DNA of 64,000 nucleotides from an uncultured archaeon (GTDB lineage: Archaea; Thermoproteota; Nitrososphaeria; Nitrososphaerales; Gagatemarchaeaceae), in NCBI GenBank assembly GCA_963799775.1, contig CAWCYD010000003.1:1472001-1536000 (forward strand), read 5' to 3'. Below the pieces are notes generated by a model. That model was not told the origin of the DNA and searched no databases. It saw nothing but the letters and a program-made list of their open reading frames with translations. Positions 12,043-33,095 of this stretch are shown one piece after another; position 1 is the stretch's first letter, and each line of letters starts with the position of its first letter. The translations under genes and the position numbers were made by a program.

Positions 12043-12996
12043 CTATGCCCTCTCTGCGGTGGTGTAGATCGACGGCGTGCTCGCGTAGGAGAGCCAAGGC
12101 TCGTACTTGGCGATCTTCCCGTGGATCGCGTCCAAGTAGGTCTGCTGGATCTTCCTCGTAATCGGGTACTTGCCGTTGCCTATCATCCTGTTGTCGACCT
12201 CCCTGATGGGCGTCACGTTCGCCGCGGTGCCGCAGAGGAAGAGCTCGTCTGCAGTGAACATGTCCTCACGCAGAAAGTCCTCTTCCTTGAACGGGATGCC
12301 GTTGTCCTTTGCTATCTGGATTATCGATTCCCTCGTGATTCCCTCTAGGACGCCTGCTGCCTTTGTGGGGGTCGTTAGGATGCCGTCCTTGACCCTGAAG
12401 ATGTTTTCCCCAGAGCCCTCGGCCACCAGGCCCCCTGTCGTCAGGAGTATCGCCTCGTCGAAGCCGGCAGAGAGCGCGTCCATCTTCGCGAGGATGGAGT
12501 TCGCGTAGTTGGCCGAGCACTTTGCATGTGGAGGAAGCGTCCTCGGGTCAATCCTGGACCAGCTGGAGACCGTGCACCTGATGCCCTTGTCCATGCCCTC
12601 GTCTCCAAGGTAGGAGCCCCACTCCCAGGCGCTTATCGCGCCGATGACCTTGTTCTTGAGCGGGTTCACGCCCATCTCGCCATAGGAGCTGAACACGATG
12701 GGGCGCACGTAGCAGTCTTTGAGGCCGTTCTCCTTCACCAAGTTCAGGCACGCCTGGACGAGCTGCTCCTCGGTGTACGGGAGATGCATCCTGTATGCCT
12801 TGGCTCCGTTCGCAAGGCGCTTGATGTGCTCCTTTAAGCGGAATATCGCAGGTTCCTTTGGCGTCGAGTTGCACCTTATTCCCTCGAAGATGGCGTAACC
12901 ATAGTGGAGGGCGTGGGTCAGGACGTGGACGTTTGCCTCGTCCCAGTCCACCAGCGCGCCGTCAAACCATATTTTCTTGGTCGGTTTCAATGCCAT
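12043..12996 (-). CDS. ilvE: Branched-chain amino acid aminotransferase
   Basis: HALHYG..FEG, AKCSANY, EGSGENIF, LEGITR. Confidence 0.95.
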   Translation of the reverse strand: MALKPTKKIWFDGALVDWDEANVHVLTHALHYGYAIFEGIRCNSTPKEPAIFRLKEHIKRLANGAKAYRMHLPYTEEQLVQACLNLVKENGLKDCYVRPIVFSSYGEMGVNPLKNKVIGAISAWEWGSYLGDEGMDKGIRCTVSSWSRIDPRTLPPHAKCSANYANSILAKMDALSAGFDEAILLTTGGLVAEGSGENIFRVKDGILTTPTKAAGVLEGITRESIIQIAKDNGIPFKEEDFLREDMFTADELFLCGTAANVTPIREVDNRMIGNGKYPITRKIQQTYLDAIHGKIAKYEPWLSYASTPSIYTTAERA

Positions 12997-13039
12997 CTAC
13001 AGTCAGCTCGAGAGGCGTGGAAAAGGCCCTAGTAGGCTA

Positions 13040-14085
13040 TTAGCGTATCGCTTCTGAGATGGCCCTTGCCACTTGGGTAGTAGTGGCCTTGCCCCCGAGG
13101 TCCGGCGTCCTTGTCCCCTTGCTGAGCACTTCGTTCACCGCCTCCCTCACTGCGGCAGCCCCTCTAGAGCAGCGGGCGACGTCCCTCGTCTTCGCAAGCC
13201 AATCCAGCATCATGGCGACTGTGAGGATCATCGCTACTGGGTTCGCAATCCCCTTCCCGGCGATGTCCGGGGCCGCCCCGTGGACGGGCTCGAATAGGGC
13301 GAAGCGCTCACCAATGTTGGCGGAAGGCGTCATGCCCAGCCCACCCACGAGCTGGGCGGCCTCGTCGGAGAGGATGTCCCCGTAGAGGTTGGTCGTGACT
13401 ATGACGTCGAAGGATAGCGGGTGCCCTGATCAGGTTCATCGCCGCCGAGTCCACCAGCATCTCGCTGAAGGAGACCTTCGGGTAGCCCTTGGAAACGTCT
13501 CTGCAAACCTGCGCAAACAGGCCGTCGCTCTTCCTGAGGACGTTCGACTTGTGGACTGCGACGACCTTTCGAGCGCCTGCCCTCTGCATGGCCATCTCGA
13601 ACGCGTACTTTGCTATCCTCTCGGAGGCTGCCTTGGTTATCGTTCTGAGTGCGACCACCCCGCCCGGGAAGTCGAACTCCTGCCCCTTGTAGAGGTCCAT
13701 CGGTGTTCTCCCTCACGATCACCATGTCGATGCCCGGCTTGAGCGAAGGGACGTTGGGAAGGCTCTTCGCAGGCCTGATGTTGGCGTAGAGGTCGAGCAT
13801 CTGCCTGAGCTTCACGATGACGTCCGCAGCCGTCTCCCCCACGGGGGCCTTGAGGCAGGCGTCAGATTCGCGGATTGATTTCAATGAGGAATCAGGAAGT
13901 GGGACTCCGGTCTTCTTCTTGCAGTTGTCTCCGGCAGGGGACTCGACGACTGAGAACCCGAGGCCCAGCTTGTCCTCGAGCGCGTCGAGGACGAGGAGCG
14001 AGGCCTTGGATATCTCGGGGCCTACACCGTCCCCCTCGATGAGGGCGATGGAGTACTTTTTCTTCGAGCCTTGCTGCTTTGGCAA
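13040..14085 (-). CDS. leuB: 3-isopropylmalate dehydrogenase (frameshifts ~13700 and ~13415)
   Basis: [37 protein letters not shown] across three frames; operon context. Confidence 0.88.
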
Positions 14086-14091
14086 GCCGTT

Positions 14092-14625
14092 CTAAGAAGA
14101 GGCCCTCATCGGCACAGCTTTTAGCTTCTGCCGGAGTCTCTCCTTGACCATCCCGAGGAACCCGCCCCTGTTCATCGACTCGATGGCCGCGTCAGTCGCG
14201 ACGATCGGATATTCGAGCCCTGTGGTGACGTCTTTGAGATTCCTCGCCTCGAGGTCTATCAGGAGCTCGTCGCCGACAGCGATCTTGCTCGTGTCGCTCA
14301 CCTGGATCGGCAGCAGGCCGTTGTTGAGGCAGTTTCGGAAGAATATGTCGGGGAAGCTCTGGGCCACGACGGCGACGACGTTGTTGTATTTTATCGCGTA
14401 GACCGCCTGCTCCCTCGAGCTGCCGCAGCCGAAGTTGTTCGCCCCCACGACGATGCTCTCCTTGTTCGCCCTGCAGGTCGGCCCGAAGGTCGGGTCGTAG
14501 CCCTCGAACGCATGGTCGGCGAAGAACTGCTTGTCCCAGCTCTCCTGGAGGATGTAGGCGGGGATGATGTAGTCGGTGTTGATGTCGTCCCCGAACTTCT
14601 TGGCCACTTTTCCCCTCATCTGCAA
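14092..14625 (-). CDS. leuD: 3-isopropylmalate dehydratase small subunit
   Basis: DINTDYIIP, NFGCGSSREQA. Confidence 0.93.
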   Translation of the reverse strand: MQMRGKVAKKFGDDINTDYIIPAYILQESWDKQFFADHAFEGYDPTFGPTCRANKESIVVGANNFGCGSSREQAVYAIKYNNVVAVVAQSFPDIFFRNCLNNGLLPIQVSDTSKIAVGDELLIDLEARNLKDVTTGLEYPIVATDAAIESMNRGGFLGMVKERLRQKLKAVPMRASS

Positions 14626-14628
14626 GTC

Positions 14629-15957
14629 TCAGTTCACACCTGATGGCAGATACTTCCTCGGGTCTGCGATCCTCCCCTCGATGGCCGTCGCGGCGGCCAG
14701 GGCGGGGACCACGAGATAGATGAAAGCCTCCGGCGAGCCCATCCTCCCCTTGTAGTTGCGGTTGCTCGTGCTCAGGCACCTGTCGCCGGGGGCGAGGATG
14801 CCCATGTGCTTGCCGAAGCAAGGGCCGCAGTTGGAGGACTCGATGTTCGCGCCCGCGTCGGCGAAGACCTTCAGGAGCCCGTTGTCCATCGCCCAGTTGT
14901 AGACGCGCCTGCTGGCGGGGATGACGATGAGGTTCGTGTTCGGGCTGACCTTCCTCCCCTTCAGGATCTTCGCGGCTATAGTGAGGTCCGCCTCGCGCGC
15001 GTTGGCACAGGAACCCAGGAAGACCGTGCTTATCGGGTCGCTCACCTCTGAGACGGGCTTTGCGTTCGCAGGGGAGTGGGGCAGGGAGACCGTGGGCTCC
15101 ACCGCGGAGGCGTCGATCTCGACGATCCTAGAGAAGTTGGCGTCGGCGTCGCTCTTGGCCATCATCCCTCGCATCTCGTCTGTCATCGGCATGCGCCTTC
15201 GCGCGAGCGCCTCGTTGACGTAAGAGAGCGTCGTGGCGTCCGGGTTGATTATCGCAGTCCTCGCGCTCATCTCCACGGAGAGGTTGCAGATCGTGAACCT
15301 CCCCTCCATGTCGAGGGCATCGATGGTCGGCCCCGTGTATTCGGCGACGCGCTTCGATGACCCGCCCTCGCCCATCATCCCGAGGATGTGTAGGACGAGG
15401 TAGTTGGCGTAGACGCCTCTCTGGAACTTGCCGCTCACCTTGAACTTGATCGTCTCCGGGACTGTAAACGAGTAGAGCTCGCCCGTCGCCAGGAGGTTCT
15501 CGCCCTCTGTGGTCCCAATCCCGAAGGCGAGGGAGCCTAGGGCGCCCTGGGTGCAGGTGTGCGAGTCGGTCGCGACAGCGATCTCCCCGGGAAGGACGAA
15601 CGCCTCCTCGGAGGCTATGGTGTGCTCGATCCCGTCGCCCTCCTTGTACATGGCTATCCCCTGGTCCTTCGCAAAGTCGGCCATCAGGCGGATGCCCTGG
15701 CTCACCTTGATGGAGCAGGAGGGGACCGTGTGGTCGGGCATGAATGCTATCCTCGAGGGGTTGAAGACCTGCATCTTCTTCCCGGACTCTGTGAAGACGT
15801 CCTCAAAGTCCTTCTCGAAGTTGAGGATGGCTGGTGGGCCTATTACCTCGTTGAAGTAGAGCTTGTCGACTGGAAGGGCCTCGATTACGTCCCCGGCCTT
15901 CGCCTTCTTCCCGATCGCACGGGAGACTATCTTCTCGGTGATGGTCGCGCCTGGCAT
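14629..15957 (-). CDS. leuC: 3-isopropylmalate dehydratase large subunit
   Basis: DSHTCT, GSCAN, CGPC, STSNRNYKGRMG. Confidence 0.93.
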   Translation of the reverse strand: MPGATITEKIVSRAIGKKAKAGDVIEALPVDKLYFNEVIGPPAILNFEKDFEDVFTESGKKMQVFNPSRIAFMPDHTVPSCSIKVSQGIRLMADFAKDQGIAMYKEGDGIEHTIASEEAFVLPGEIAVATDSHTCTQGALGSLAFGIGTTEGENLLATGELYSFTVPETIKFKVSGKFQRGVYANYLVLHILGMMGEGGSSKRVAEYTGPTIDALDMEGRFTICNLSVEMSARTAIINPDATTLSYVNEALARRRMPMTDEMRGMMAKSDADANFSRIVEIDASAVEPTVSLPHSPANAKPVSEVSDPISTVFLGSCANAREADLTIAAKILKGRKVSPNTNLIVIPASRRVYNWAMDNGLLKVFADAGANIESSNCGPCFGKHMGILAPGDRCLSTSNRNYKGRMGSPEAFIYLVVPALAAATAIEGRIADPRKYLPSGVN

Positions 15958-15978
15958 GAGATTCTTTCCTCTTTTCGC

Positions 15979-17538
15979 CTAGACCCCTTCCACCGCTGTC
16001 TGCTCTCCCTTGGCGGCGAAGGAGGTCGACGGCTGGGCCTGGAGTTTCATCGCCATGAGCGCGTTTATTCCGTTCACTATGGCTTCGACGCTGGCTACGA
16101 CGATGTCCCTCTTCAACCCGCGCCCAGAGGCGACCAAACCAGTGCTGTCCTCGACCTTGACGGAGACGTCGGCGACGGCTTGGGAGTCGCCTGTAAGCGC
16201 CTCGAGCCTGTATTCCTTGAGCTTCACTATGTCGATCGTGCTGAATATCTTCTGGATGGCGTTCACCGCGGCGTCGACAGGCCCTGACCCGACGTCCGTC
16301 GCCTCGTGCAGCTGGCCTCTGATGAGGAGCTTCACGGTGGCGCTAGGGAGGCGCTTTATCCCGGTGACGACCTCGAGGCCCTCGAGCTCGACGATGTCCG
16401 CCGTCTCTGCCTTGCCACCGCCCATTATCTGAATTGCGAGCTGGTAGAGGTCGCTGTCGGTAGTGCTCCTCCCCTGGTCGCCCATCTCCTTCACCTTCTC
16501 CACGATGAGCCTCAGGCTGTCCTCCTTCGGCTTCAGGCCCATCCCTCTCAGCTGGTAGGCGATCCCGTGCCTCCCAGCGTGCTTGCCGGCCTGGAGCCAC
16601 CTTGTCCTGCCCACCATCGCCGGGTCGAAGGGCTCGTAGGTGGACGGGTTGCTGAGTATCCCATGGGTGTGGATCCCGGACTCATGCCCGAAAGCGTTGT
16701 CGCCGACTATGGCCTTGTTCGGCTGGATCATGACGCCCGTCAGGGTTGAGACCAGACGCGACGTCTCGTAGAGAAGCGAGTAGTTGATGTTCGTCCTCAG
16801 CGCGTAGAGGTTGAAGCACCCCATCACGAACTCCTCGAGCGAGGTATTCCCCGACCTCTCGCCGATGCCGTTTATCGTGAGGTGCGCCTGGTCTGCCCCC
16901 GCGACGACACCGGCCAGGCTGTTCGCGACTGCCAGACCGTAGTCATTGTGGCAGTGGACGCTGATCATCGCGTCGGAGACGGAGCGTGCGGCCTGGACGT
17001 ATTCCGTTATCTTCTGGGGCGTCGCTATCCCGACGGTGTCGGGGATGTCGAAGCGGTCGATCCCAGCGTCGGTGACGGTCTTTACGACCTGCTTGAAGAA
17101 CGGGATCTCCGTGCGCGTCGCGTCCTCTGCAGAGAACTCGACCTTGACGCCGAAAGTCTTCGCGTAGCGGACCATGTCCGCCGACTGCTTGAGCATCTGC
17201 TCCCTCGTCATGTGGAGCTTGTGTTGGAGGTGGATGTCTGAGGATGCGAGGAAGACGTGGACGCCCTTCACGCCGCAGTTGATCGCCGTGTCGATGTCGA
17301 GCTTCTCGGCCCTTGCCAGGCCCGAGACCTCCGCCTTGAGGCCTGCCTTCGCTATCCTTCGGACGCCCTCCTGCTCGCCCTTCGATGTGATAGGGAAACC
17401 TGCCTCTATGACGTCGACGCCGAGCTTGTCGAGGGCCTCCGCTATCTCCAGCTTCTCGTCGGGTGTCAGCGAGACTCCGGGAGTCTGCTCCCCGTCTCGG
17501 AGCGTCGTGTCGAGCACGCGGATTATCCTCTCGGTCAT
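15979..17538 (-). CDS. leuA: 2-isopropylmalate synthase (citramalate synthase not excluded)
   Basis: DTTLRDGEQ, HCHND, GERSGN, C-terminal regulatory domain GPVDA. Confidence 0.88.
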   Translation of the reverse strand: MTERIIRVLDTTLRDGEQTPGVSLTPDEKLEIAEALDKLGVDVIEAGFPITSKGEQEGVRRIAKAGLKAEVSGLARAEKLDIDTAINCGVKGVHVFLASSDIHLQHKLHMTREQMLKQSADMVRYAKTFGVKVEFSAEDATRTEIPFFKQVVKTVTDAGIDRFDIPDTVGIATPQKITEYVQAARSVSDAMISVHCHNDYGLAVANSLAGVVAGADQAHLTINGIGERSGNTSLEEFVMGCFNLYALRTNINYSLLYETSRLVSTLTGVMIQPNKAIVGDNAFGHESGIHTHGILSNPSTYEPFDPAMVGRTRWLQAGKHAGRHGIAYQLRGMGLKPKEDSLRLIVEKVKEMGDQGRSTTDSDLYQLAIQIMGGGKAETADIVELEGLEVVTGIKRLPSATVKLLIRGQLHEATDVGSGPVDAAVNAIQKIFSTIDIVKLKEYRLEALTGDSQAVADVSVKVEDSTGLVASGRGLKRDIVVASVEAIVNGINALMAMKLQAQPSTSFAAKGEQTAVEGV

Positions 17539-17987
17539 CGCAACGCGCTCTCCTTTGGTAGGGCAGCCGTGCCGGTTCTCGCGATGTCGAGGACGTTCAC
17601 CCCCAACCTGTCCACGAACTCGTCAATCTGCTTGACGGACCCTACTATCTCGGCTACCACGGAGTGCTGAGACGAGTCTACTATCCTGCAACCCGAGTTC
17701 CTTTGGATCTCCGCAACGGAAATCTTGTCCGTGTTTATCTTCACAAGCGCGAGCTCTCTCGCTGTGACCTCCTCGGGGCCATAGGTGTGCGCCTCGAGGA
17801 TGTCTATGACTTTCATCAACTGCCTGGCCACGTGCTCGACGGCGGCGTCGTCCCCGCTGAGGGTCATGGTCATCCGGCATTCCTTGCCTCCGCTGCTCAC
17901 GCCTAGCGTGAGGCCCTCGATGTTGAGGCGCATCAGCCTCACTAGGTGCACCACCCGGAAAAGAGTCCCGGGCTTGTTCTCAACCAA
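17535..17987 (-). CDS. ilvH: Acetolactate synthase small subunit
   Basis: VENKPGTL ACT domain, RELALVK, IARTG. Confidence 0.92.
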   Translation of the reverse strand: MVENKPGTLFRVVHLVRLMRLNIEGLTLGVSSGGKECRMTMTLSGDDAAVEHVARQLMKVIDILEAHTYGPEEVTARELALVKINTDKISVAEIQRNSGCRIVDSSQHSVVAEIVGSVKQIDEFVDRLGVNVLDIARTGTAALPKESALR

Positions 17988-18014
17988 GGCAGATAGGACT
18001 TTCGAGGAGCATCG

Positions 18015-19742
18015 TCAAAAGACCGCCATCTCCTTTGGCGAGCCGTAGACGGTGTCCTTGATCCCCTTGCCTGGAGGGAGGAATGGGAAGACGTCCTCCT
18101 CGGGCGATACGGGGCACTCGATCACCATCGGACCGTCGAGCGTGAGGCCCTCGCGCATCGCCTTTGCGAACTCGTCGAGCGACCCCACCGTCTTCGCGTG
18201 GGCGCCGTAGGCCTCGGAGAGCTTGACAAAGTCCGGGATGTTCGGGAACTTTATCCCGATGTAGCGCCTGTTGTACATGATCCTCTGCCACTGCTCGACC
18301 ATCCCCAAGCTCCTGTCGTTGATGATCACCGAGATTATCGGGAGGTGGTGCTCTACCGCTGTCGCGAGGGCCTGCTCCGTCATGACGAAGCTCCCGTCGC
18401 CGTCGAAGTCGACCACTGGGACGTCGGGCCTGGCGAACTTGGCGCCCACTGCTGCGGGAAGACCGAACCCCATCGTCCCCAGCCCCGTGGAAGTGATCCA
18501 CGTCCTCGGCCTCAGCACCTTGTAGTGGATCTCGCACCACATCTGGTGCCTGCCGACGCCCGTGGTGAGGATGGCCTCGGGAGGCAGGATGTCCCTGAGC
18601 TTCTTGACTATCGTTGGGCCTGAGAGGTCCGCGTAGGTGTTCTTGTAGGCGGGGATCCCCTTCATCTCCTCCCTCACCTCGTTGACGCGCTTCAACCACG
18701 GGTTGTTGTTCGGGTCACTTGCTCTTGGACAGTCGCCTCGCGACCGAGTCGAAGAGCATCCCCATGACTATGTTTGCGTCGCCCAGTATCGAGAGGTCCA
18801 CCACCTTGTTCTTGTTGAACTCGGTCGGGTCGGCGTCGATGTGGATTATCTTGGCGCCAGGGGCGAACTCGGCGAAGTTCCCGGTCGAGCGGTCGGAGAA
18901 CCTCACGCCCACCGCGACCAGGAGGTCGCACTCTGAGACGAGCTTGTTCGCCTCGGCCCTCCCGTGCATCCCGATGGGGCCCAGTGAGAGCGGATGATCC
19001 TCTGGGAAGTCGCCCTTGCCTTGGAGCGTCGTGATGACGGGCGCCATCAGAAGCTCGGCGAGCGCCCCGAAGGGCTGGGCCGCGTCCGCGATCCTCACCC
19101 CGCCTCCGCCCCACAGGATGGGCCTCTCTGCCTTGACAATCATCTCGGCCGCGCGCTCCACGTCCGTCGCGTCCACGGGGACGTTGGGCCTGTAGGCGCG
19201 GACGGTGACTGAGTCGGGGAAGGTCATCTCCGCCTCTTCCTGCTGGACGTCCTTCGGAAGGTCCACGAGGACGGGTCCGGGCCGCCCGGTAGTCGCGATG
19301 TAGAAGGCCTCCTTAACGGCGAAGGGGCACTTCCGCGGGGGAGAGGGGCTGTAGAGTGTACTTGGTGACAGGCGTGGCTATCCCGATGACGTCGGTCTCT
19401 TGGAAGGCGTTCTTACCTGTCATCGCCTTGGGCACCTGGCCTGTGATCGCCACCATCGGGGAGGAGTCGGCGTACGCGGTCGCTATCCCTGTGATGAGGT
19501 TCGTCGCGCCAGGCCCTGAAGTCGCCGTGCAGACTCCCGCCTTGCGTGAGACCCTGCCGTAGGCGTCGGCCATGTGGGCGGCCAGCTGCTCGTGCCTCGT
19601 CAGGATGTGCTTGATCTTCGAGTCCCAGAGCGCGTCGTAGAGAGGAAGGCTCGCGCCTCCGGGCATGCCGAAGATGTACTCTACCTTCTCCCTCTCGAGG
19701 GGCCTCCACCGTAGCCCGTGCGCCAGACATCTTGCTTGCCAT
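18015..19742 (-). CDS. ilvB: Acetolactate synthase large subunit (several frameshifts)
   Basis: [37 protein letters not shown] across frames. Confidence 0.92.
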
Positions 19743-19773
19743 TCTATGCAATCACCAGAAATTCGAAACGCTT

Positions 19774-19811
19774 GTTGCCTCGCAAACACAAAACACCGTG
19801 TGGCGAGGAAC
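19774..19811 (-). promoter_or_regulatory. Hairpin in the ilvB leader
   Basis: Minus strand gtt-cctcgc-caca...tgtg-ttt-gcgagg-c-aac, directly after the leader ORF stop. Confidence 0.5.
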
Positions 19812-19895
19812 CTAGACTAAAACTAAGAATGCAACTGTCGAGTTGTCGAGTGAGATGCCTCCTTGACTCGAACCGAGAGTGCTAATTCGTTGCAT
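19812..19895 (-). CDS. Putative ilv/leu leader peptide [27 protein letters not shown]
   Basis: ATG ~22-30 bp downstream of TTAAATATAA (19917-19926, minus strand); ends GTT GCA TTC TTA GTT TTA GTC TAG. Confidence 0.5.
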
Positions 19896-19929
19896 TTAAT
19901 TCCCTGCAACCCAGACTTATATTTAAGAG

Positions 19930-20313
19930 TTGGTCGGCGACCGACGTAGCGACGTCAACGTGACCGTGAACCTTGCAGAAGTCATCCGCCCTTGGGGGAG
20001 CTTCCGCATCATCGGTCAGTTCTCGGGCCGGATCACGGTGAAGATTGTGAAGATCAACCCGCACGGCCGGCTAAGTCTTCAGAGGCACCACAACAGGGAC
20101 GAGGAGTGGACCGTCCTCAGCGGCCAAGTCACCGCAACCGTCGGCGACAGGGTGTACCACTTGCACGTGGGGGACAGGACGACCGCTTATCGCACCTGGG
20201 TGCACAGATTGGAGAGCGACGTCGGGGCCGAGCTCCTCGAGGTCTCGTACGGGGAGTTCGACGAGGACGACATAGTCCGCCTCAGCGACGACTACGGGCG
20301 GAAGACCCCTTGA
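19930..20313 (+). CDS. Cupin, mannose-6-phosphate isomerase type II C-terminal-like (start uncertain)
   Basis: RPWG, LSLQRHHNRDEEW, HRL, EDDIVRLSDDYGR. Confidence 0.88.
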   Translation: MVGDRRSDVNVTVNLAEVIRPWGSFRIIGQFSGRITVKIVKINPHGRLSLQRHHNRDEEWTVLSGQVTATVGDRVYHLHVGDRTTAYRTWVHRLESDVGAELLEVSYGEFDEDDIVRLSDDYGRKTP

Positions 20314-20352
20314 AATTAGAACTTCCGGATTCTGTAAAGTCTGTTGCACGGC

Positions 20353-20586
20353 CTAGGGGATGAAAAACCACTTGATAGTTTGTGGATTGCAACCAAGATG
20401 CCACCCGAAGTGCGGTGCATACACCTCTCCCAATCCAACAGTTGCACAGCCTGCGGAGCGGTAAACCGGCGACGGGGGCCCGAAGCCCGCCGAAATGTTC
20501 ACCCAAAACAGGACGGGAGCAAGGAAGAAGGCGACAATTAGGATGCACGCGATTCCCGCCAGCGCGACCTTTCTCCTTGTCTGCAT
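20353..20586 (-). CDS. Small membrane-anchored protein
   Basis: RRK followed by a hydrophobic helix; short Cys-containing tail. Confidence 0.55.
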   Translation of the reverse strand: MQTRRKVALAGIACILIVAFFLAPVLFWVNISAGFGPPSPVYRSAGCATVGLGEVYAPHFGWHLGCNPQTIKWFFIP

Positions 20587-20784
20587 CGCTTTTTCAGAGT
20601 GGAAGATTGCCTTAACTCTTGAGGGTCTTCTGAATCCCCTGGTCCCATTCCTCTTAGGTAATCAGGCGCTTCTCTTCGAGTAGGTCCGCTGGCGAAGTTA
20701 TCCTTCTCGTGCCTCACGCAAAAAACTTTGCGGAATCGACCTTCCGTCTGCCTTAAATATAACGGCCTAATATTGAGTGCCTAC

Positions 20785-26616: not shown

Positions 26617-27171
26617 GTGGGCGTCATGAGCGTGGGTGCGCCTGCTTCCGCCAATCGCGGGAGGCTGGTCCGCGTCGCCGTCGTGATGACATGCACCCTG
26701 ATCGTCCTGGCGGGGATCTTCGTCTTCACCCTTCAGAGCAACGCTGCCACCGCCTCCGTCACTTCTCAAGTCCACGATGCGTACGCCAAACACGCCTCTG
26801 ATTTTGCGTCAGGGAACTTGACGGTCTTGATGGGCGACTATGGTCCCGCCGCCACGGTCCTTTGGACAGGCGACACAAGGAATTGGGGAGGCGAATTCTC
26901 CAACTCGAGCGGCATACAAGCGTTCTTCACCCGCTTCTTGTCGGTGTATCCGACGATTTCTCTCCAGAACGTCACCTATTCCGTAATGTCGCAGGGTAAC
27001 GGGGCGACCGTCGAAGGCTCTGCGACCCTAATCGGCCTGAACGTCTCGAACCAGTCGCTGCGTGCCCCGATCTTGACGCAGACCGTCTACACGCGTGACA
27101 ACGGCGTGTGGGTGATCTCGAGCGAGACGTGGTCCTTCCAGAACTTCTTCATCCTGCAACCCTTCGATTGA
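26617..27171 (+). CDS. Membrane-anchored NTF2/SnoaL-like protein
   Basis: TM segment, then an alpha/beta pattern ending WVISSETW. Confidence 0.7.
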
Positions 27172-27201
27172 AAGAGGGAATTGTAATCCGCCCGATGACG
27201 T

Positions 27202-28204
27202 CTATGTGACCTGGTCGTTGGGCCACATCATGCTTCGCAGCTTCTTTCCGACCTTCTCGATCTGGTGGGCCTCGAGGGCGTCCATGTATTTCTGGAACGA
27301 CTTTTGCCCTTCCTTCTCGTAGACGCTGACCCACTCCTTCGCGAAGGTCCCCGTCCTGGATCTCCTTCAGGTCCTTCTTCATCGCCTTCTTCACCTCCGG
27401 GCCTATGGCCCTCTTCCCTCTCGTAAGGCCCCCATACCGGGCCGTCTCGCTCACCCTCCGATACATCCCTGAGATCCCATACTTTTGGACCAGGTCGACT
27501 ATCAGCTTCAGCTCGTGGAGCGTCTCGAAGTACGCAATCTCCGGCTGGTAGCCGGCTTCCACAAGAGTCTCGAACGCGTTCTTCACCATGCTCTCGACCC
27601 CTCCGCAGAGGTCCACCTGCTCGCCGAACCAGTCGCTCTCCACCTCTTCCTTGAAGGTGGTCTGCAAGATGCCAGGCCGGGTCGAGCCGATGCCCTTTGC
27701 AATCGCTAGGACGCGGTCCCATGCCCTCTTCGAGTAGTCCTGCTGGACTGCGACTAGCGACGGGGTCCCGAAGTTCTCGAGATAGAGCTCCCTCACCCTT
27801 TGCCCGGGAGACTTGGGTGCGACCATGATGACGTCGGATTTCTTTGGCGGGACGATCCACTTCCAGTGGATGGCAGCGCCGTGCGAGAACGAGAGCGCGG
27901 CTCCCTTTTGGAAGTTCGGGGCTATCTCCTCCTTGTAGACCCGGGCCTGCTCCATGTCCGGAATCAGGACGTGGACAATCTGGGCCTTCTTGACCGCGTC
28001 GGGGACGGTCGCCACTTTGTGCCCCTCGTTCTTCGCCTTCTTCCAGCTCTTTCCTCCCTCACGGAGGCCAACGACCACCTTCAGGCCAGAGTCCCTCAGG
28101 TTGCTCGCCTGGGCCGCTCCCTGGATGCCATAACCAATCACCGCTATCGTCTCGCCCTTTATCGGGTCTAGACTGACGTCGTCATCGTGCCACATCTTCG
28201 CCAT
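27202..28204 (-). CDS. ilvC: Ketol-acid reductoisomerase (frameshift ~27345)
   Basis: [35 protein letters not shown]. Confidence 0.95.
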
Positions 28205-30654: not shown

Positions 30655-31275
30655 TTGAAGCGTTCTGGAATGATGATGCAAATGTCGATAGTCGTCTCGT
30701 TGACCGCCCTTATCGCACTGGGCGCGGGAGGCCTCTACACTTACAGCGTCACGGGCTCGACCGCATTGAATTCGGCGCCGACGAGCAACCTGACCGCTGC
30801 ACAGACTGCGGCGAATTCCAAGGCCGACCCTGGCGGAAAGTTTCTCGGTTTCATCCCAGCTGGGTACACCGTCGCGTCCCTTCTCCCCAACGCCGCCACC
30901 TATCCATGTCCGCCCGGATCAACCGCGGCGCAGTGCGCTCAGTTCAAGGCGTCTTGCGGCAACGGTGTCTGCGACCCCAACGAGACATGCGGCACGTGCC
31001 CGATAGACTGTGGGACTCCACAAGGCCTGTCTTGCGACCCATACACAGGCAGGGCCTCTGGTCTAGGAGGCATCTGTGAGATTACAATCCCGTACACGAA
31101 CGTGAACCCATCAGAGACCAACATCAATACGCCGCCGCCGACCCCTGGTCAGGCCACTCAGGGCCCTGACCAGAGCCCACTAGTCAGGCAGGGCATCGAA
31201 CCCCAGCGTAGCCTTCGAGTCTCGGCTAGTCGGCACGACTACGCTTATAACAAACCGAGAGTCGCCGGGCCCTAA
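30655..31275 (+). CDS. Secreted Cys-rich protein
   Basis: TM segment plus CGNGVCDPNETCGTCPIDCG. Confidence 0.75.
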   Translation: MKRSGMMMQMSIVVSLTALIALGAGGLYTYSVTGSTALNSAPTSNLTAAQTAANSKADPGGKFLGFIPAGYTVASLLPNAATYPCPPGSTAAQCAQFKASCGNGVCDPNETCGTCPIDCGTPQGLSCDPYTGRASGLGGICEITIPYTNVNPSETNINTPPPTPGQATQGPDQSPLVRQGIEPQRSLRVSASRHDYAYNKPRVAGP

Positions 31276-31277
31276 TC

Positions 31278-32971
31278 TTGCAAAGGACTAAGTCGCATCC
31301 TGCCAAACTGACCGCCGGGATCGACAGACCCCCCAGCGCGCAATGCTCCGCGCGATAGGCCTGACGGACGAGGACTTTGAAAAGCCGATAATCGGGATCG
31401 CCAACACCTGGGTCGAGGCCCAGCCCTGTAACTACGACCTGAGAGAGCTCGCCATCGAGGTGAAGAAGGGAGTGAGGGACGCGGGCGGGACGCCCCTGGA
31501 GTTCAACACGATAGCGATCAACGACGCCATGGCGATGGGCCATGAGGGGATGAAGGCCTCGCTCATCAGCCGCGAGGTCATCGCGGACTCCATCGAGCTG
31601 AGCGCTTCGGGGTACCAGTTCGACGGGCTCGTCACGATCGGAGGATGCGACAAGACGCAGCCAGCCTCGGCGATGGCTCTCGCGCGCGTCAACATCCCCG
31701 GAGTCTACCTCTACGGCGGGAGCATCCCGCCAGGAGAGTGGAACGGGAAGGAGGTGACGATACAGGACGTCTTCGAGGCGATGGGGCAGGTCTCCAGGGG
31801 GACGATGACCGTCGCGCAGCTCAATGGACCTCGAGTGCAACGCGTGTCCCACTTTCGGCGCATGCGGAGGGATGTTCACGGCCAACACGATGGCATCGGC
31901 GCTAGAGGCGATAGGCCTCACTGTCCCGAACTGCGCCGCGCCTGTGGCCCCGAGCGAGGCGAGGAAGAAGGTGGCGTACGACACCGGCTGGGCCGTCATG
32001 AAGGCCCTTGAGACTAACACCAGGCCCCGAGACATATTGACGAGGGACGCGTTCGAGAACGCCATCGCCGTTGTCGCCGGGATGGGCGGCTCGACCAACG
32101 CCGTGCTGCATCTCCTGGCGATCGCCTACGAGGCTCACGTGAAGCTATCCTATGACGACATAGAGAGGGTGGGCGCTAAGCGCCCACCGAGCTCGCCGAC
32201 CTCCGGCCAGCAGGGAAGTACGTGATGTCGGACGTCGACCGAGTGGGAGGCGTGAAGCTGGTGATGAAGCAGCTCCTCGATGCGGGCCTGCTCCACGGGG
32301 ACGCACGGACAGTGACGGGGGAGCCTCTCTCGGAGAGGCTGAAGGGCGTCACCCTGCCGACCGGCCAAGACGTCATCCACCCGATCTCCAACCCCGTGAG
32401 AAAGTCGGGCGGGTTCGCGATACTCAGGGGGAACCTGGCGACCGAGGGCGGCGTCCTGAAGACCGCCGGGTCGACGAGGAACTCGCACCGCGGGCCTGCG
32501 CGAGTCTTCGAGAAGGAAGAGGACGCGAGGCAAGCGATCATCGAGAAGAAGATCAACCCGGGCGACACCGTCGTCGTCCGCTACGAAGGACCCAAGGGCG
32601 GGCCAGGGATGCGCGAGATGCTCGTAGTCACCGCGGCGCTCGTGGGCCAGGGCCTGAAGGACTCGGTCGCGCTCTTGACGGACGGGAGGTTCTCGGGAGC
32701 CACCCATGGGTTCATGATTGGGCACATCGCCCCAGAGGCAGCGGTGGGAGGGACGATAGGGCTCCTCAAGAACGGAGACATCATCTCGATAGACGTCGAG
32801 AAGAGGTCGCTCAACGTGGAGCTCTCGGACCAGGAACTCGAGAAGAGAAGAAAGGCCTGGAGGCCGCCTCCCCCGAAGTATACCCACGGCGTGTTCGCAA
32901 AGTATGCGCAGCTCGTCACGTCGTCTTCGAAGGGCGCAGTCTGCCTGGTCGACGCGGAAAAGACCACCTAG
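31278..32971 (+). CDS. ilvD: Dihydroxy-acid dehydratase (about three frameshifts)
   Basis: PCN, CDKT, CGGMFTANTM, GGSTN, GPGMREM, TDGRFSG. Confidence 0.93.
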
Positions 32972-33095
32972 TCTGGTTCTGTCAAGTCTACATTTCGTCA
33001 AACGCACCCATCGAGAGTCCGCGCGAAAACCTCAGGAGACAGAACGGGCTAAAAGCAACCCCAAATCCCTCGGAACAAGGCGGTCTTAGGAAGAC

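Follow-up and report, generated by a model that had tools for sequence, protein, structure and literature searches.

A conserved candidate leader peptide ending in leucine, valine and isoleucine codons ahead of the ilvBH-leuACDB operon in the archaeal order Nitrososphaerales

In an uncultured archaeon of the family Gagatemarchaeaceae (order Nitrososphaerales), the ilvBH-leuACDB operon is preceded by a small upstream open reading frame (uORF), here called uORF1, that ends in a cluster of leucine (Leu, L) and valine (Val, V) codons and has its stop codon at the foot of a predicted RNA hairpin. The window, that is, the whole stretch of DNA analysed, comprises the 64,000 nucleotides (nt) from position 1,472,001 to 1,536,000 of contig CAWCYD010000003.1 (assembly GCA_963799775.1), and the operon lies on its minus strand. 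Comparative analyses show that the leader of this operon is a real, strongly conserved and specific element, of a type of control that is not established in archaea. With moderate confidence, uORF1 is interpreted as a translated, cis-acting leader peptide that reports the supply of charged Leu-, Val- and isoleucine (Ile, I)-tRNA to ilvBH-leuACDB, with a translational output favoured. That the element is a translated amino-acid sensor is judged probable; that its output is translational is put forward tentatively and is open to considerable doubt. A previous, sequence-only reading of the locus had proposed a leader-peptide attenuator, and the features on which it was built are all present on the minus strand: a TATA box, an ORF of 27 codons, the tail V-A-F-L-V-L-V, a GC stem with a U-rich interior adjacent to the stop codon, and the GGTGA ahead of ilvB (Table 1). 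L or V accounts for five of the seven final residues of uORF1 in the window, and 69 nt separate its stop codon from the ilvB ATG. Similarly, the ilvBH-leuACDB operon named in that reading is confirmed by Pfam, with matches for ilvB, the small subunit, leuA, leuC, leuD and leuB, and additionally for a class IV aminotransferase.

The main evidence is the recurrence of the element ahead of ilvB in related genomes. Loci upstream of ilvB were taken from 30 relatives in the genus or order, 35 named records, 60 loci across the phylum, and two further sets of nine and five; L019 (56 nt; order set) and L086 (outside-order set) were dropped for short upstream sequence. Because the ilvB frame is broken in the assembly of the window, the ilvB of a same-genus relative (L003) was used to find the named records, and those nearest to it are metagenome-assembled genomes labelled Nitrososphaerales, Nitrososphaeria or Thaumarchaeota. 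A uORF qualified if it had at least 10 codons, at least five L/I/V among its last eight residues and a stop codon 20-95 nt before the ilvB start. Among the 56 loci from the window's order, which its named relatives identify as Nitrososphaerales/Thaumarchaeota, 50 had such a tailed uORF; since L025 and L049 share one leader, this amounts to 49 of 55 distinct leaders. For instance, a record labelled Candidatus Gagatemarchaeum stordalenia has a leader peptide identical to that of a same-genus locus, a named Nitrosopumilus record (L052) carries the leader, and in the family nearest to that record (f12) the tail is present in 15 of the 18 sampled loci. Five further families of the order were clear in four cases (6-7 of 8 residues L/I/V) and weak in one (4 of 8). 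Among 16 families other than the window's own, 13 were clear, two were weak and one was without the element, giving an order-wide tally of 14 of 17 sampled families, or 16 of 17 with the weak forms included. The sequence-only reading had looked to relatives for the uORF and for its enrichment in branched-chain amino-acid codons, and both are kept across the order together with a stop-adjacent hairpin.

A tailed uORF before ilvB is not due to chance. In an earlier set of 45 loci that included outgroups, 37 matches were observed where 0.8 were expected (1.8%; 200 dinucleotide shuffles per locus), and the reverse complement gave one match in 45. The element is also restricted to the ilvB leader in the window's genome. 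On both strands of this genome there are 152 ATG-initiated ORFs of 12-40 codons with an L/I/V tail, and in 31 of them a hairpin of -12 kcal/mol or lower begins no more than 6 nt downstream. When a TATA box 15-45 nt upstream is also required, exactly one of those 31 is left, namely the ilvB leader. Similarly, a scan of the same genome for a TATA box followed by an ATG and an ORF of 8-45 codons returned 26 ORFs, and the L/I/V tail was found in the ilvB leader alone, while ilvC and ilvD, both located in the window, have no Leu/Val/Ile leader. In the same phylum but outside the order the element occurs patchily: a tailed uORF was present in five of 52 loci, with a strong post-stop hairpin in just two of these, both from family f35. 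In these two loci (L094 and L095) the uORFs end ...SLVIVVILK and ...VNVVILK, and the strong hairpin is followed by ilvB. A record labelled Marsarchaeota (L047) has a 23-codon uORF ending ...LGLLVVLV and a strong hairpin before ilvB. Four Thermoproteales records had no such leader.

Within the tail, conservation is concentrated on the codons nearest to the stop. Counting back from the last sense codon (position -1), the share of L/I/V in the 50 loci is 70%, 96%, 96%, 70%, 88%, 50% and 80% at positions -1 to -7, compared with 36-42% at -9 to -12 and 10-19% at -15 to -17, and the 400 tail residues include 169 L, 98 V and 30 I. T occupies the second codon position in 76% of tail codons, versus 20% for the first and 26% for the third position, a periodicity indicative of a codon-level constraint as opposed to a U-tract. 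On average, T makes up 41% of the tail, versus 29% upstream, and some families have G+C-rich tails. The tail and stem nucleotide sequences are wholly different between families, as are the N-terminal parts of the uORFs; the 28 uORFs that have a strict TATA box are 17-31 codons long. Inside the window's genus the peptide is well conserved, and the indels seen in short-read relatives are of 3 nt (an insertion in L020, a deletion in L009). In L060 there is a 1-nt deletion in the leader, and there the ilvB start region is likewise out of frame.

Codon choice in the tail is also unusual. Among 1,297 long ORFs of the window's genome, TTA makes up 0.011 of 46,886 Leu codons and GTT 0.114 of Val codons, so that the rarity of TTA noted in the sequence-only reading holds genome-wide (1.1%), and rare tail codons are found throughout the genus. 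Specifically, all 19 loci of the genus have rare tail codons, each at p <= 0.001, with log2 relative usage between -1.2 and -2.35 versus about +0.3 to +0.85 expected. Over a wider set of 36 loci, 31 have tail codons that are rarer than would be expected from synonymous usage, and the named Nitrosopumilus record is one of them.

The position of the promoter fits a leaderless uORF1. A strict TATA 8-mer (at least 7 of 8 matches) is present in 28 of the 50 loci, and in 18 of these 28 its first base lies 31-32 nt 5' of the uORF ATG. This spacing predicts a transcription start at or beside the uORF ATG, and it agrees with the near-leaderless ORF of the sequence-only reading. In six leaders of family f12 (L052, L071 and L073-L076), the stretch from the uORF hairpin to ilvB contains a conserved motif, TTTTAACAC(A/T)TTAAAATTATGGAG, that folds as a small hairpin; it could also be a second TATA-like promoter, which would alter how the leader of this family is read.

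The second conserved component is the hairpin that begins at the uORF1 stop codon (P2 in the window). The 45 nt from the stop codon fold at -17.5 kcal/mol in the window (z = -2.75), where P2 has a GTT/AAC extension, an inner stem and a U-rich loop, while the entire 171-nt leader is about as stable as its shuffles (z = -0.29). Over the 50 loci, the 45 nt from the stop average -11.8 kcal/mol, versus -4.1 kcal/mol for control windows upstream of the uORF, with a median z against shuffles of -1.96 (below -1 in 40 and below -2 in 24 of the 50). The first paired base falls between -3 and +6 nt from the end of the stop codon in 49 of 50 loci. At its other end, the hairpin comes within 0-40 nt of the ilvB start, which lies 30-72 nt from the uORF1 stop. 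In the genus, the arms of P2 (CTCGC / GCGAG) are invariant and the loop is variable; between families the stems are of other sequence. With respect to covariation of the stem, which the sequence-only reading had put forward as a check, a stop-adjacent hairpin is kept between families with different sequences, but the arms are near-invariant in the genus, so that there is no covariation within the family and structural conservation is seen between families alone.

The hairpin is not an intrinsic terminator of the bacterial type, as the absence of a T-run past it indicates, and on this point the sequence-only reading is not supported. Within 12 nt after the hairpin, a run of at least four T occurs in one of 50 loci and a run of at least five in none, and the T content of these 12 nt is 32% versus a background of 29%. 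Gene ends of the same genome do not carry a hairpin signal either (mean -9.65 kcal/mol at 400 gene ends versus -10.82 kcal/mol inside genes). Archaeal termination is described, in the available part of PMC7515710, as relying on uridine-rich tracts and cleavage by aCPSF1, with no strict need for a hairpin, and the hairpin studied here is without a downstream uridine tract of that kind (cf. PMC7515710, same part).

Additional pairings within the leader are less general. In the window a stem within uORF1 (P1) encloses an inner hairpin (Table 1), and in a second subgroup of the genus CAACGCTAC pairs with GTAGCGTTG at the P1 location, forming seven pairs. An alignment of 22 genus leaders with MAFFT, folded with RNAalifold, misaligned the subgroups and recovered just six P1 pairs; RNAalifold applied per subgroup found P1 in subgroup 2, and for the 10 leaders of subgroup 1 paired the 5' end of the uORF with the 3' half of the hairpin, a pairing that is weak in the window and inconsistent among members. 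Pairing of the 5' end (AUG) was not detected as an order-wide trait (mean 0.47 versus 0.46 in shuffles, n = 48). In three leaders of the second subgroup (L013, L015 and L018), a palindrome CTCTAGAG includes the uORF stop codon and a second copy lies 7 nt downstream in the hairpin loop; in L020, GTCTAG with CTAGAC stands in place of CTCTAGAG. These repeats could form an alternative small hairpin or a protein-binding site.

The relation between ribosome position and the hairpin was explored by masked folding, an equilibrium partition-function calculation, and as such a weak test, in which a stretch reaching back 15 nt and forward 7, 9 or 12 nt from the first A-site base was kept unpaired. Free RNA forms the hairpin with a median probability of 0.85. 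For an A site at -3 the values are 0.88, 0.86 and 0.72 with reaches of 7, 9 and 12 nt, respectively, and the median stays at 0.72-0.88 from -5 to -3. It then falls to 0.82, 0.70 and 0.38 at -2, to 0.62, 0.33 and 0.04 at -1, and to 0.15, 0.02 and 0.00 at the stop codon. Opening of the hairpin is thus predicted only for a ribosome at the stop codon or at the final one or two sense codons, and these sense positions are the ones most consistently occupied by L/I/V. With a ribosome at the stop, the free-energy structures contained no common partner for the freed 3' arm. Two competing helices, as in an antiterminator arrangement, were also considered, and no general competitor appeared in the ribosome-masked folding; therefore, a classical competing-helix scheme is not supported. 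In one genus of family f12 (g14), the hairpin itself contains the ilvB GGTGA, and the predicted accessibility of this ribosome-binding site (RBS) rises with a ribosome at the uORF end in all three loci (0.33 to 0.48-0.54, 0.42 to 0.50-0.66, and 0.35 to 0.39-0.48).

In the window's subgroup, a possible link between the hairpin and ilvB is a second short frame, uORF2. Its start codon ends on the G with which GCGAGG, the 3' arm of P2, begins, and in the window a GGTG in the P2 loop lies 8 nt 5' of the uORF2 TTG. A start codon is present at this place in nine of the ten subgroup leaders (seven ATG, one GTG and one TTG, the last being that of the window; the other carriers are L003-L008, L060 and L061), and GAGGT, GGGGT or GGTG occurs in the hairpin loop 7-9 nt before the start in all ten. 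The frame has 13-15 codons and spans the ilvB GGTGA. Its stop is a TGA overlapping the ilvB ATG (ATGA) in seven of the ten leaders and a TAG one base before the ATG in the other three, the window included. A second mini-ORF is not a general relay: a crude scan found one in 14 of 50 loci, and the second subgroup is without it. There, translation of ilvB probably starts at an in-frame GTG located 12 nt further upstream, about 7 nt behind the hairpin.

Taken together, we infer that uORF1 is translated, that ribosomes slow on its tail when Leu-, Val- or Ile-tRNA is scarce, and that the hairpin is opened according to how long they dwell there. Transcription would begin at or beside the uORF ATG, making the uORF leaderless, and the ribosome would meet final codons that are nearly all Leu, Val or Ile, including, in this genus, rare ones such as TTA, with the stop codon at the foot of the hairpin. 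A ribosome awaiting a scarce tRNA with its A site on one of the last two sense codons would occupy the hairpin foot and keep the hairpin open meanwhile. An unheld ribosome would terminate and depart, allowing the hairpin to reclose, and for this reason the hairpin would read dwell time. In the window's subgroup, P2 would hold the RBS of uORF2, with GGTG located in the loop and the start codon in the 3' arm, and once open it would hand ribosomes on to ilvB. Where relatives have a shorter spacer, the ilvB RBS itself has the hairpin beside or over it. A translational output is favoured because there is no terminator signature, because the hairpin is near or over the initiation site in several lineages, and because of the relay ORF in the subgroup, and what reads the state of the hairpin is the least certain part of the model. 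A further proposal, namely an archaeal form of ribosome-mediated sensing in which a leaderless mini-ORF ends in codons for the pathway's products, has its stop at a hairpin foot, and lets dwell time set expression without an intrinsic terminator, kept throughout the Nitrososphaerales including the ammonia oxidisers, seems to us about evenly balanced between right and wrong.

Several observations weigh against this interpretation. The loci are related and the counts thus overstate their independence, and six of the 56 order loci are without the tail (L009, with the tail VASTALV; L021, with RRFLL; L026; L068; L072; and L133). The bias towards rare codons is not significant in most other families, and a hydrophobic tail could have other causes. 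With regard to mechanism, the hairpin remains intact with a ribosome at codons -8 to -3, so that any effect through it would have to come from the final one or two codons, and ribosomes terminating in the ordinary way open the hairpin as well. Accessibility of the ilvB RBS over the 50 loci hardly responds to ribosome position, with means of 0.45 in free RNA, 0.47 at each of -6, -4 and -2, and 0.48 at the stop; shifts larger than 0.1 are upward in five loci and downward in six, and in the window itself a ribosome at the stop lowers accessibility slightly (0.53 to 0.40). In addition, uORF2 is confined to ten closely related leaders, one of which (L009) has no start codon and another, the window, has TTG, and an open frame of 13-15 codons is not rare by chance. 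Given the close kinship of these leaders and the fact that such a short frame is not rare, the putative relay ORF is treated as a lead and not as a finding. The sequence-only reading had ribosome position control the hairpin and, through it, termination or ilvB initiation, and neither a ribosome-controlled alternative structure nor a general unmasking of the ilvB RBS was seen in masked equilibrium folding. Overall, it is partly supported, as to the sensor, and less so as to the mechanism.

The same sensor could instead act at the level of RNA; this is the main rival interpretation, and we consider it unlikely. Here a held ribosome and the hairpin would shield the leader from an aCPSF1/FttA-type factor or a nuclease, or the hairpin would affect pausing or termination of RNA polymerase, and more full-length operon RNA would be made or kept in starvation, an arrangement closer to tnaC and Rho than to trp attenuation. 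Transcription and translation are coupled in archaea, and this counts in its favour, as does the near absence of a gap between tail and hairpin, which means that a stalled ribosome would directly adjoin the hairpin, with no single-stranded RNA in between. The elevated T content of the tail, the lack of general support for a translational read-out in masked folding, and the use of uridine-rich tracts and aCPSF1 with no strict need for a hairpin (PMC7515710, in the part available) point the same way. However, T-runs after the hairpin are virtually lacking in the 50 loci, the T of the tail is periodic at the second codon position, which points to codons, and the tails of some families are G+C-rich. 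Additionally, gene ends of this genome have no hairpin signal, and thus the hairpin is not of the local terminator type.

Other explanations dispense with sensing altogether. If uORF1 were a translated but non-sensing leaderless entry cistron, it would load ribosomes and hand them to ilvB by coupling, with the tail as a by-product, for example, of a sequence needed near the hairpin. The promoter spacing is of the type found for leaderless mRNAs and the mini-ORF stops of the subgroup meet the ilvB start, but the filling of positions -1 to -7 with L/I/V in families that share no tail nucleotides, the choice of rare codons, and the restriction to the branched-chain operon (ilvC and ilvD being without the feature) would go unexplained, and direct reinitiation would have to bridge 30-72 nt from the uORF1 stop to the ilvB start, which is a long distance for it; we regard this account as improbable. 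Were uORF1 to encode a functional micro-protein whose C-terminus is hydrophobic, for example, a membrane-associated peptide that is merely co-transcribed with ilvB, this would account for the conservation of the ORF and for a peptide that is well kept in the genus. Between families, though, the composition of the last eight or so residues is all that is kept, the length varies, and the peptide is otherwise polar and not conserved. The hydrophobic run, at four residues in the window and up to about nine in relatives, is below the length of a membrane helix (about 15-20 residues to span or anchor), within the genus the conserved bases also form RNA stems, and synteny with ilvB is strict, so that a micro-protein is most improbable. 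An element that acts untranslated, as RNA or DNA, for example, through a regulator binding to a hairpin or palindrome, with the ORF present by chance, would fit the invariant arms around a variable loop and the two copies of CTCTAGAG in the second subgroup. It is also very unlikely: 3-nt periodicity, an in-frame start and stop, and in-frame indels would not be expected of it, the tailed ORF arises in 1.8% of shuffles versus 37 of 45 loci, the stem sequences differ between families, and Rfam gave no match (E <= 10; 19000-20600, both strands).

Leader-peptide control is a textbook bacterial mechanism, and the enterobacterial attenuators of branched-chain operons (ivbL-ilvBN, ilvL-ilvGMEDA and leuL-leuABCD) are among the known systems closest to the archaeal leader. 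As in those ilv/leu leaders, a short ORF in the leader of a branched-chain operon contains clustered and partly rare Leu/Val/Ile codons with an RNA structure directly downstream, and the presumed sensor is the speed of the ribosome on these codons. In contrast to them, the archaeal uORF is predicted to be leaderless, its control codons are the very last ones, its stop is at the foot of a single hairpin, the leader is without a U-run (none of 50 loci with five or more T), and folding gave no ribosome-dependent alternative helix; the host, moreover, is an archaeon, with another polymerase and another mode of termination. The element is thus not a classical bacterial attenuator of the trp/leu/ilv kind, for which a terminator with U-run and an antiterminator are defining. 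In the tnaC-tnaA leader of E. coli, the nascent TnaC peptide senses free tryptophan and Rho is blocked. Similarly, a ribosome held at the end of the leader ORF would here control the downstream gene by occupying the RNA beside the stop, although the signal would be tRNA charging; factor exclusion of the tnaC type would be compatible with the geometry alone, there being no gap between tail and hairpin.

Two further bacterial systems are similar in some respects. The mycobacterial polycysteine ORFs are described, in the available part of Canestrari et al. (10.1101/834739), as leaderless short ORFs that form the first cistron of a biosynthetic operon and on which a stalled ribosome blocks a duplex sequestering the downstream RBS. 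Common to both would be a leaderless sensory short ORF, amino-acid-dependent stalling in a run of codons, and no intrinsic terminator (10.1101/834739, same part); on the other hand, an RBS-sequestering duplex is not generally predicted in the archaeal leader, and the run is of Leu/Val/Ile codons at the extreme C-terminus, unlike the cysteine run described there (10.1101/834739, same part). The architecture appears nearer to these leaderless ORFs than to the enterobacterial attenuators. In Corynebacterium, the ilvBNC leader and the ilvB-II uORF are described as a three-hairpin transcription attenuator in the accessible portions of PMC11857589 and PMC10272879, and they share with the archaeal leader a conserved Ile/Val/Leu-rich uORF upstream of ilvB with hairpins; as far as those portions go, the difference is that the archaeal leader has one order-wide hairpin and no terminator signature (PMC11857589, PMC10272879). 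No archaeal case of a leader peptide, of attenuation or of genes regulated by ribosomes stalling at amino-acid codons was found in open PubMed Central papers and bioRxiv preprints, and a description elsewhere is possible; nor was an archaeal leader-peptide case present in the available parts of PMC13158618, PMC2965389, PMC9413887 and PMC1262725.

The coordinates of the leader and operon in the window are collected in Table 1. The genome consists of 3 contigs, is 82% complete and has a G+C content of 59%. Its assembly splits ilvB over several frames, and leuB and ilvD (Table 1) appear to be split too, often at homopolymers in all three genes. For the region 18900-20300, one DNA run (share 0.33), two more runs from its study and no RNA run were listed. 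Contigs assembled from this short-read DNA run, which served solely as an assembly check, have one base fewer at 18009, 18717 and 19328 (depth 2.5-3.2), and in relatives the ilvB frame is intact (576-592 amino acids, with the N-terminus M(T/P)EKMSGARA), while that of the window shifts beyond its opening residues. The breaks in ilvB, at least three in number, therefore look like indel errors of a long-read assembly and not like gene decay, and they are treated as such. Another short-read contig matches 19848-19998 with zero differences and covers the promoter and codons 1-16 of uORF1, which are thus taken as reliable; the remainder of uORF1 has the same length and frame as in the nearest relatives.

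Table 1. Features of the ilvB leader, the operon and neighbouring genes, in window positions
Feature	Position	Strand	Basis or remark
TATA box CTTAAATA	19920-19927	-	sequence; first base 32 nt 5' of the A of the uORF1 ATG
uORF1, candidate leader peptide, 27 codons plus stop	19812-19895	-	ATG 19893-19895, TAG 19812-19814
Control-codon tail GTT GCA TTC TTA GTT TTA GTC (V A F L V L V)	19815-19835	-	sequence
Stem P1 within uORF1, ATGCAAC 19889-19895 with GTTGCAT 19829-19835	19829-19895	-	sequence and fold
Inner hairpin enclosed by P1, GTTCGAGT 19866-19873 with ACTCGAC 19845-19851		-	sequence and fold
Hairpin P2, CCTCGC 19803-19808 with GCGAGG 19778-19783	19774-19811	-	onset 1 nt past the uORF1 stop
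Candidate relay ORF uORF2, 13 codons	19744-19785	-	TTG 19783-19785, TAG 19744-19746; start in the P2 3' arm
GGTGA, Shine-Dalgarno-like site of ilvB	19752-19756	-	9 nt spacer to the ilvB ATG; kept in the window's subgroup
ilvB, acetolactate synthase large subunit	17980-19742	-	ATG 19740-19742; Pfam TPP_enzyme_N, TPP_enzyme_M; frame broken in assembly
Rest of operon after ilvB, small subunit to class IV aminotransferase	12046-17987	-	Pfam and ORF list
Small subunit	17538-17987	-	Pfam
leuA	15982-17538	-	Pfam
leuC	14632-15957	-	Pfam
leuD	14095-14625	-	Pfam
leuB, N-terminal part alone in frame	13402-14085	-	Pfam
Class IV aminotransferase	12046-12996	-	Pfam
ilvC	27149-28204	-	own TATA box
ilvD	about 31270-33000	+	appears split
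Divergent cupin / mannose-6-phosphate-isomerase-like ORF	19930-20310	+	begins within about 40 nt of the TATA box

The TATA sequence is almost symmetric, reading TTATATTTAAG on the plus strand (region 19914-19961), and with the divergent cupin-like ORF starting so close by, the promoter region may serve both directions. For ilvC, a TATA box of its own precedes the ATG by about 33 nt and an upstream ORF is absent, and ilvD has an apparent TTG start about 27 nt behind a TATA-like GCTTATAA and may be leaderless. leuA is the sole HMGL-family gene of the genome. A 13-codon ORF with two tryptophan codons behind a TATA box (contig C3, 211561-211603, plus strand), located directly before a gene for a SixA-like phosphohistidine phosphatase, was considered as another leader and judged to be due to chance. 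No tRNA-Leu(UAA) was present among the 18 tRNAs predicted by ARAGORN (37 with introns allowed), which is uninformative in an assembly that is 82% complete.

What is new here is the description of the element in the window's family, the order-wide survey, the absence of a U-run, the geometry of ribosome position relative to the hairpin, and the candidate relay ORF. The order-wide element is a concrete and testable case in an order that includes cultivable and environmentally important ammonia oxidisers. If the interpretation is correct, archaeal transcription-translation coupling or translational coupling would serve metabolic feedback, by a design that works without a terminator, and archaeal genome annotation would gain dozens of translated mini-ORFs that are at present unannotated. 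It would also give a clue to the control of amino-acid synthesis in organisms with few known regulators.

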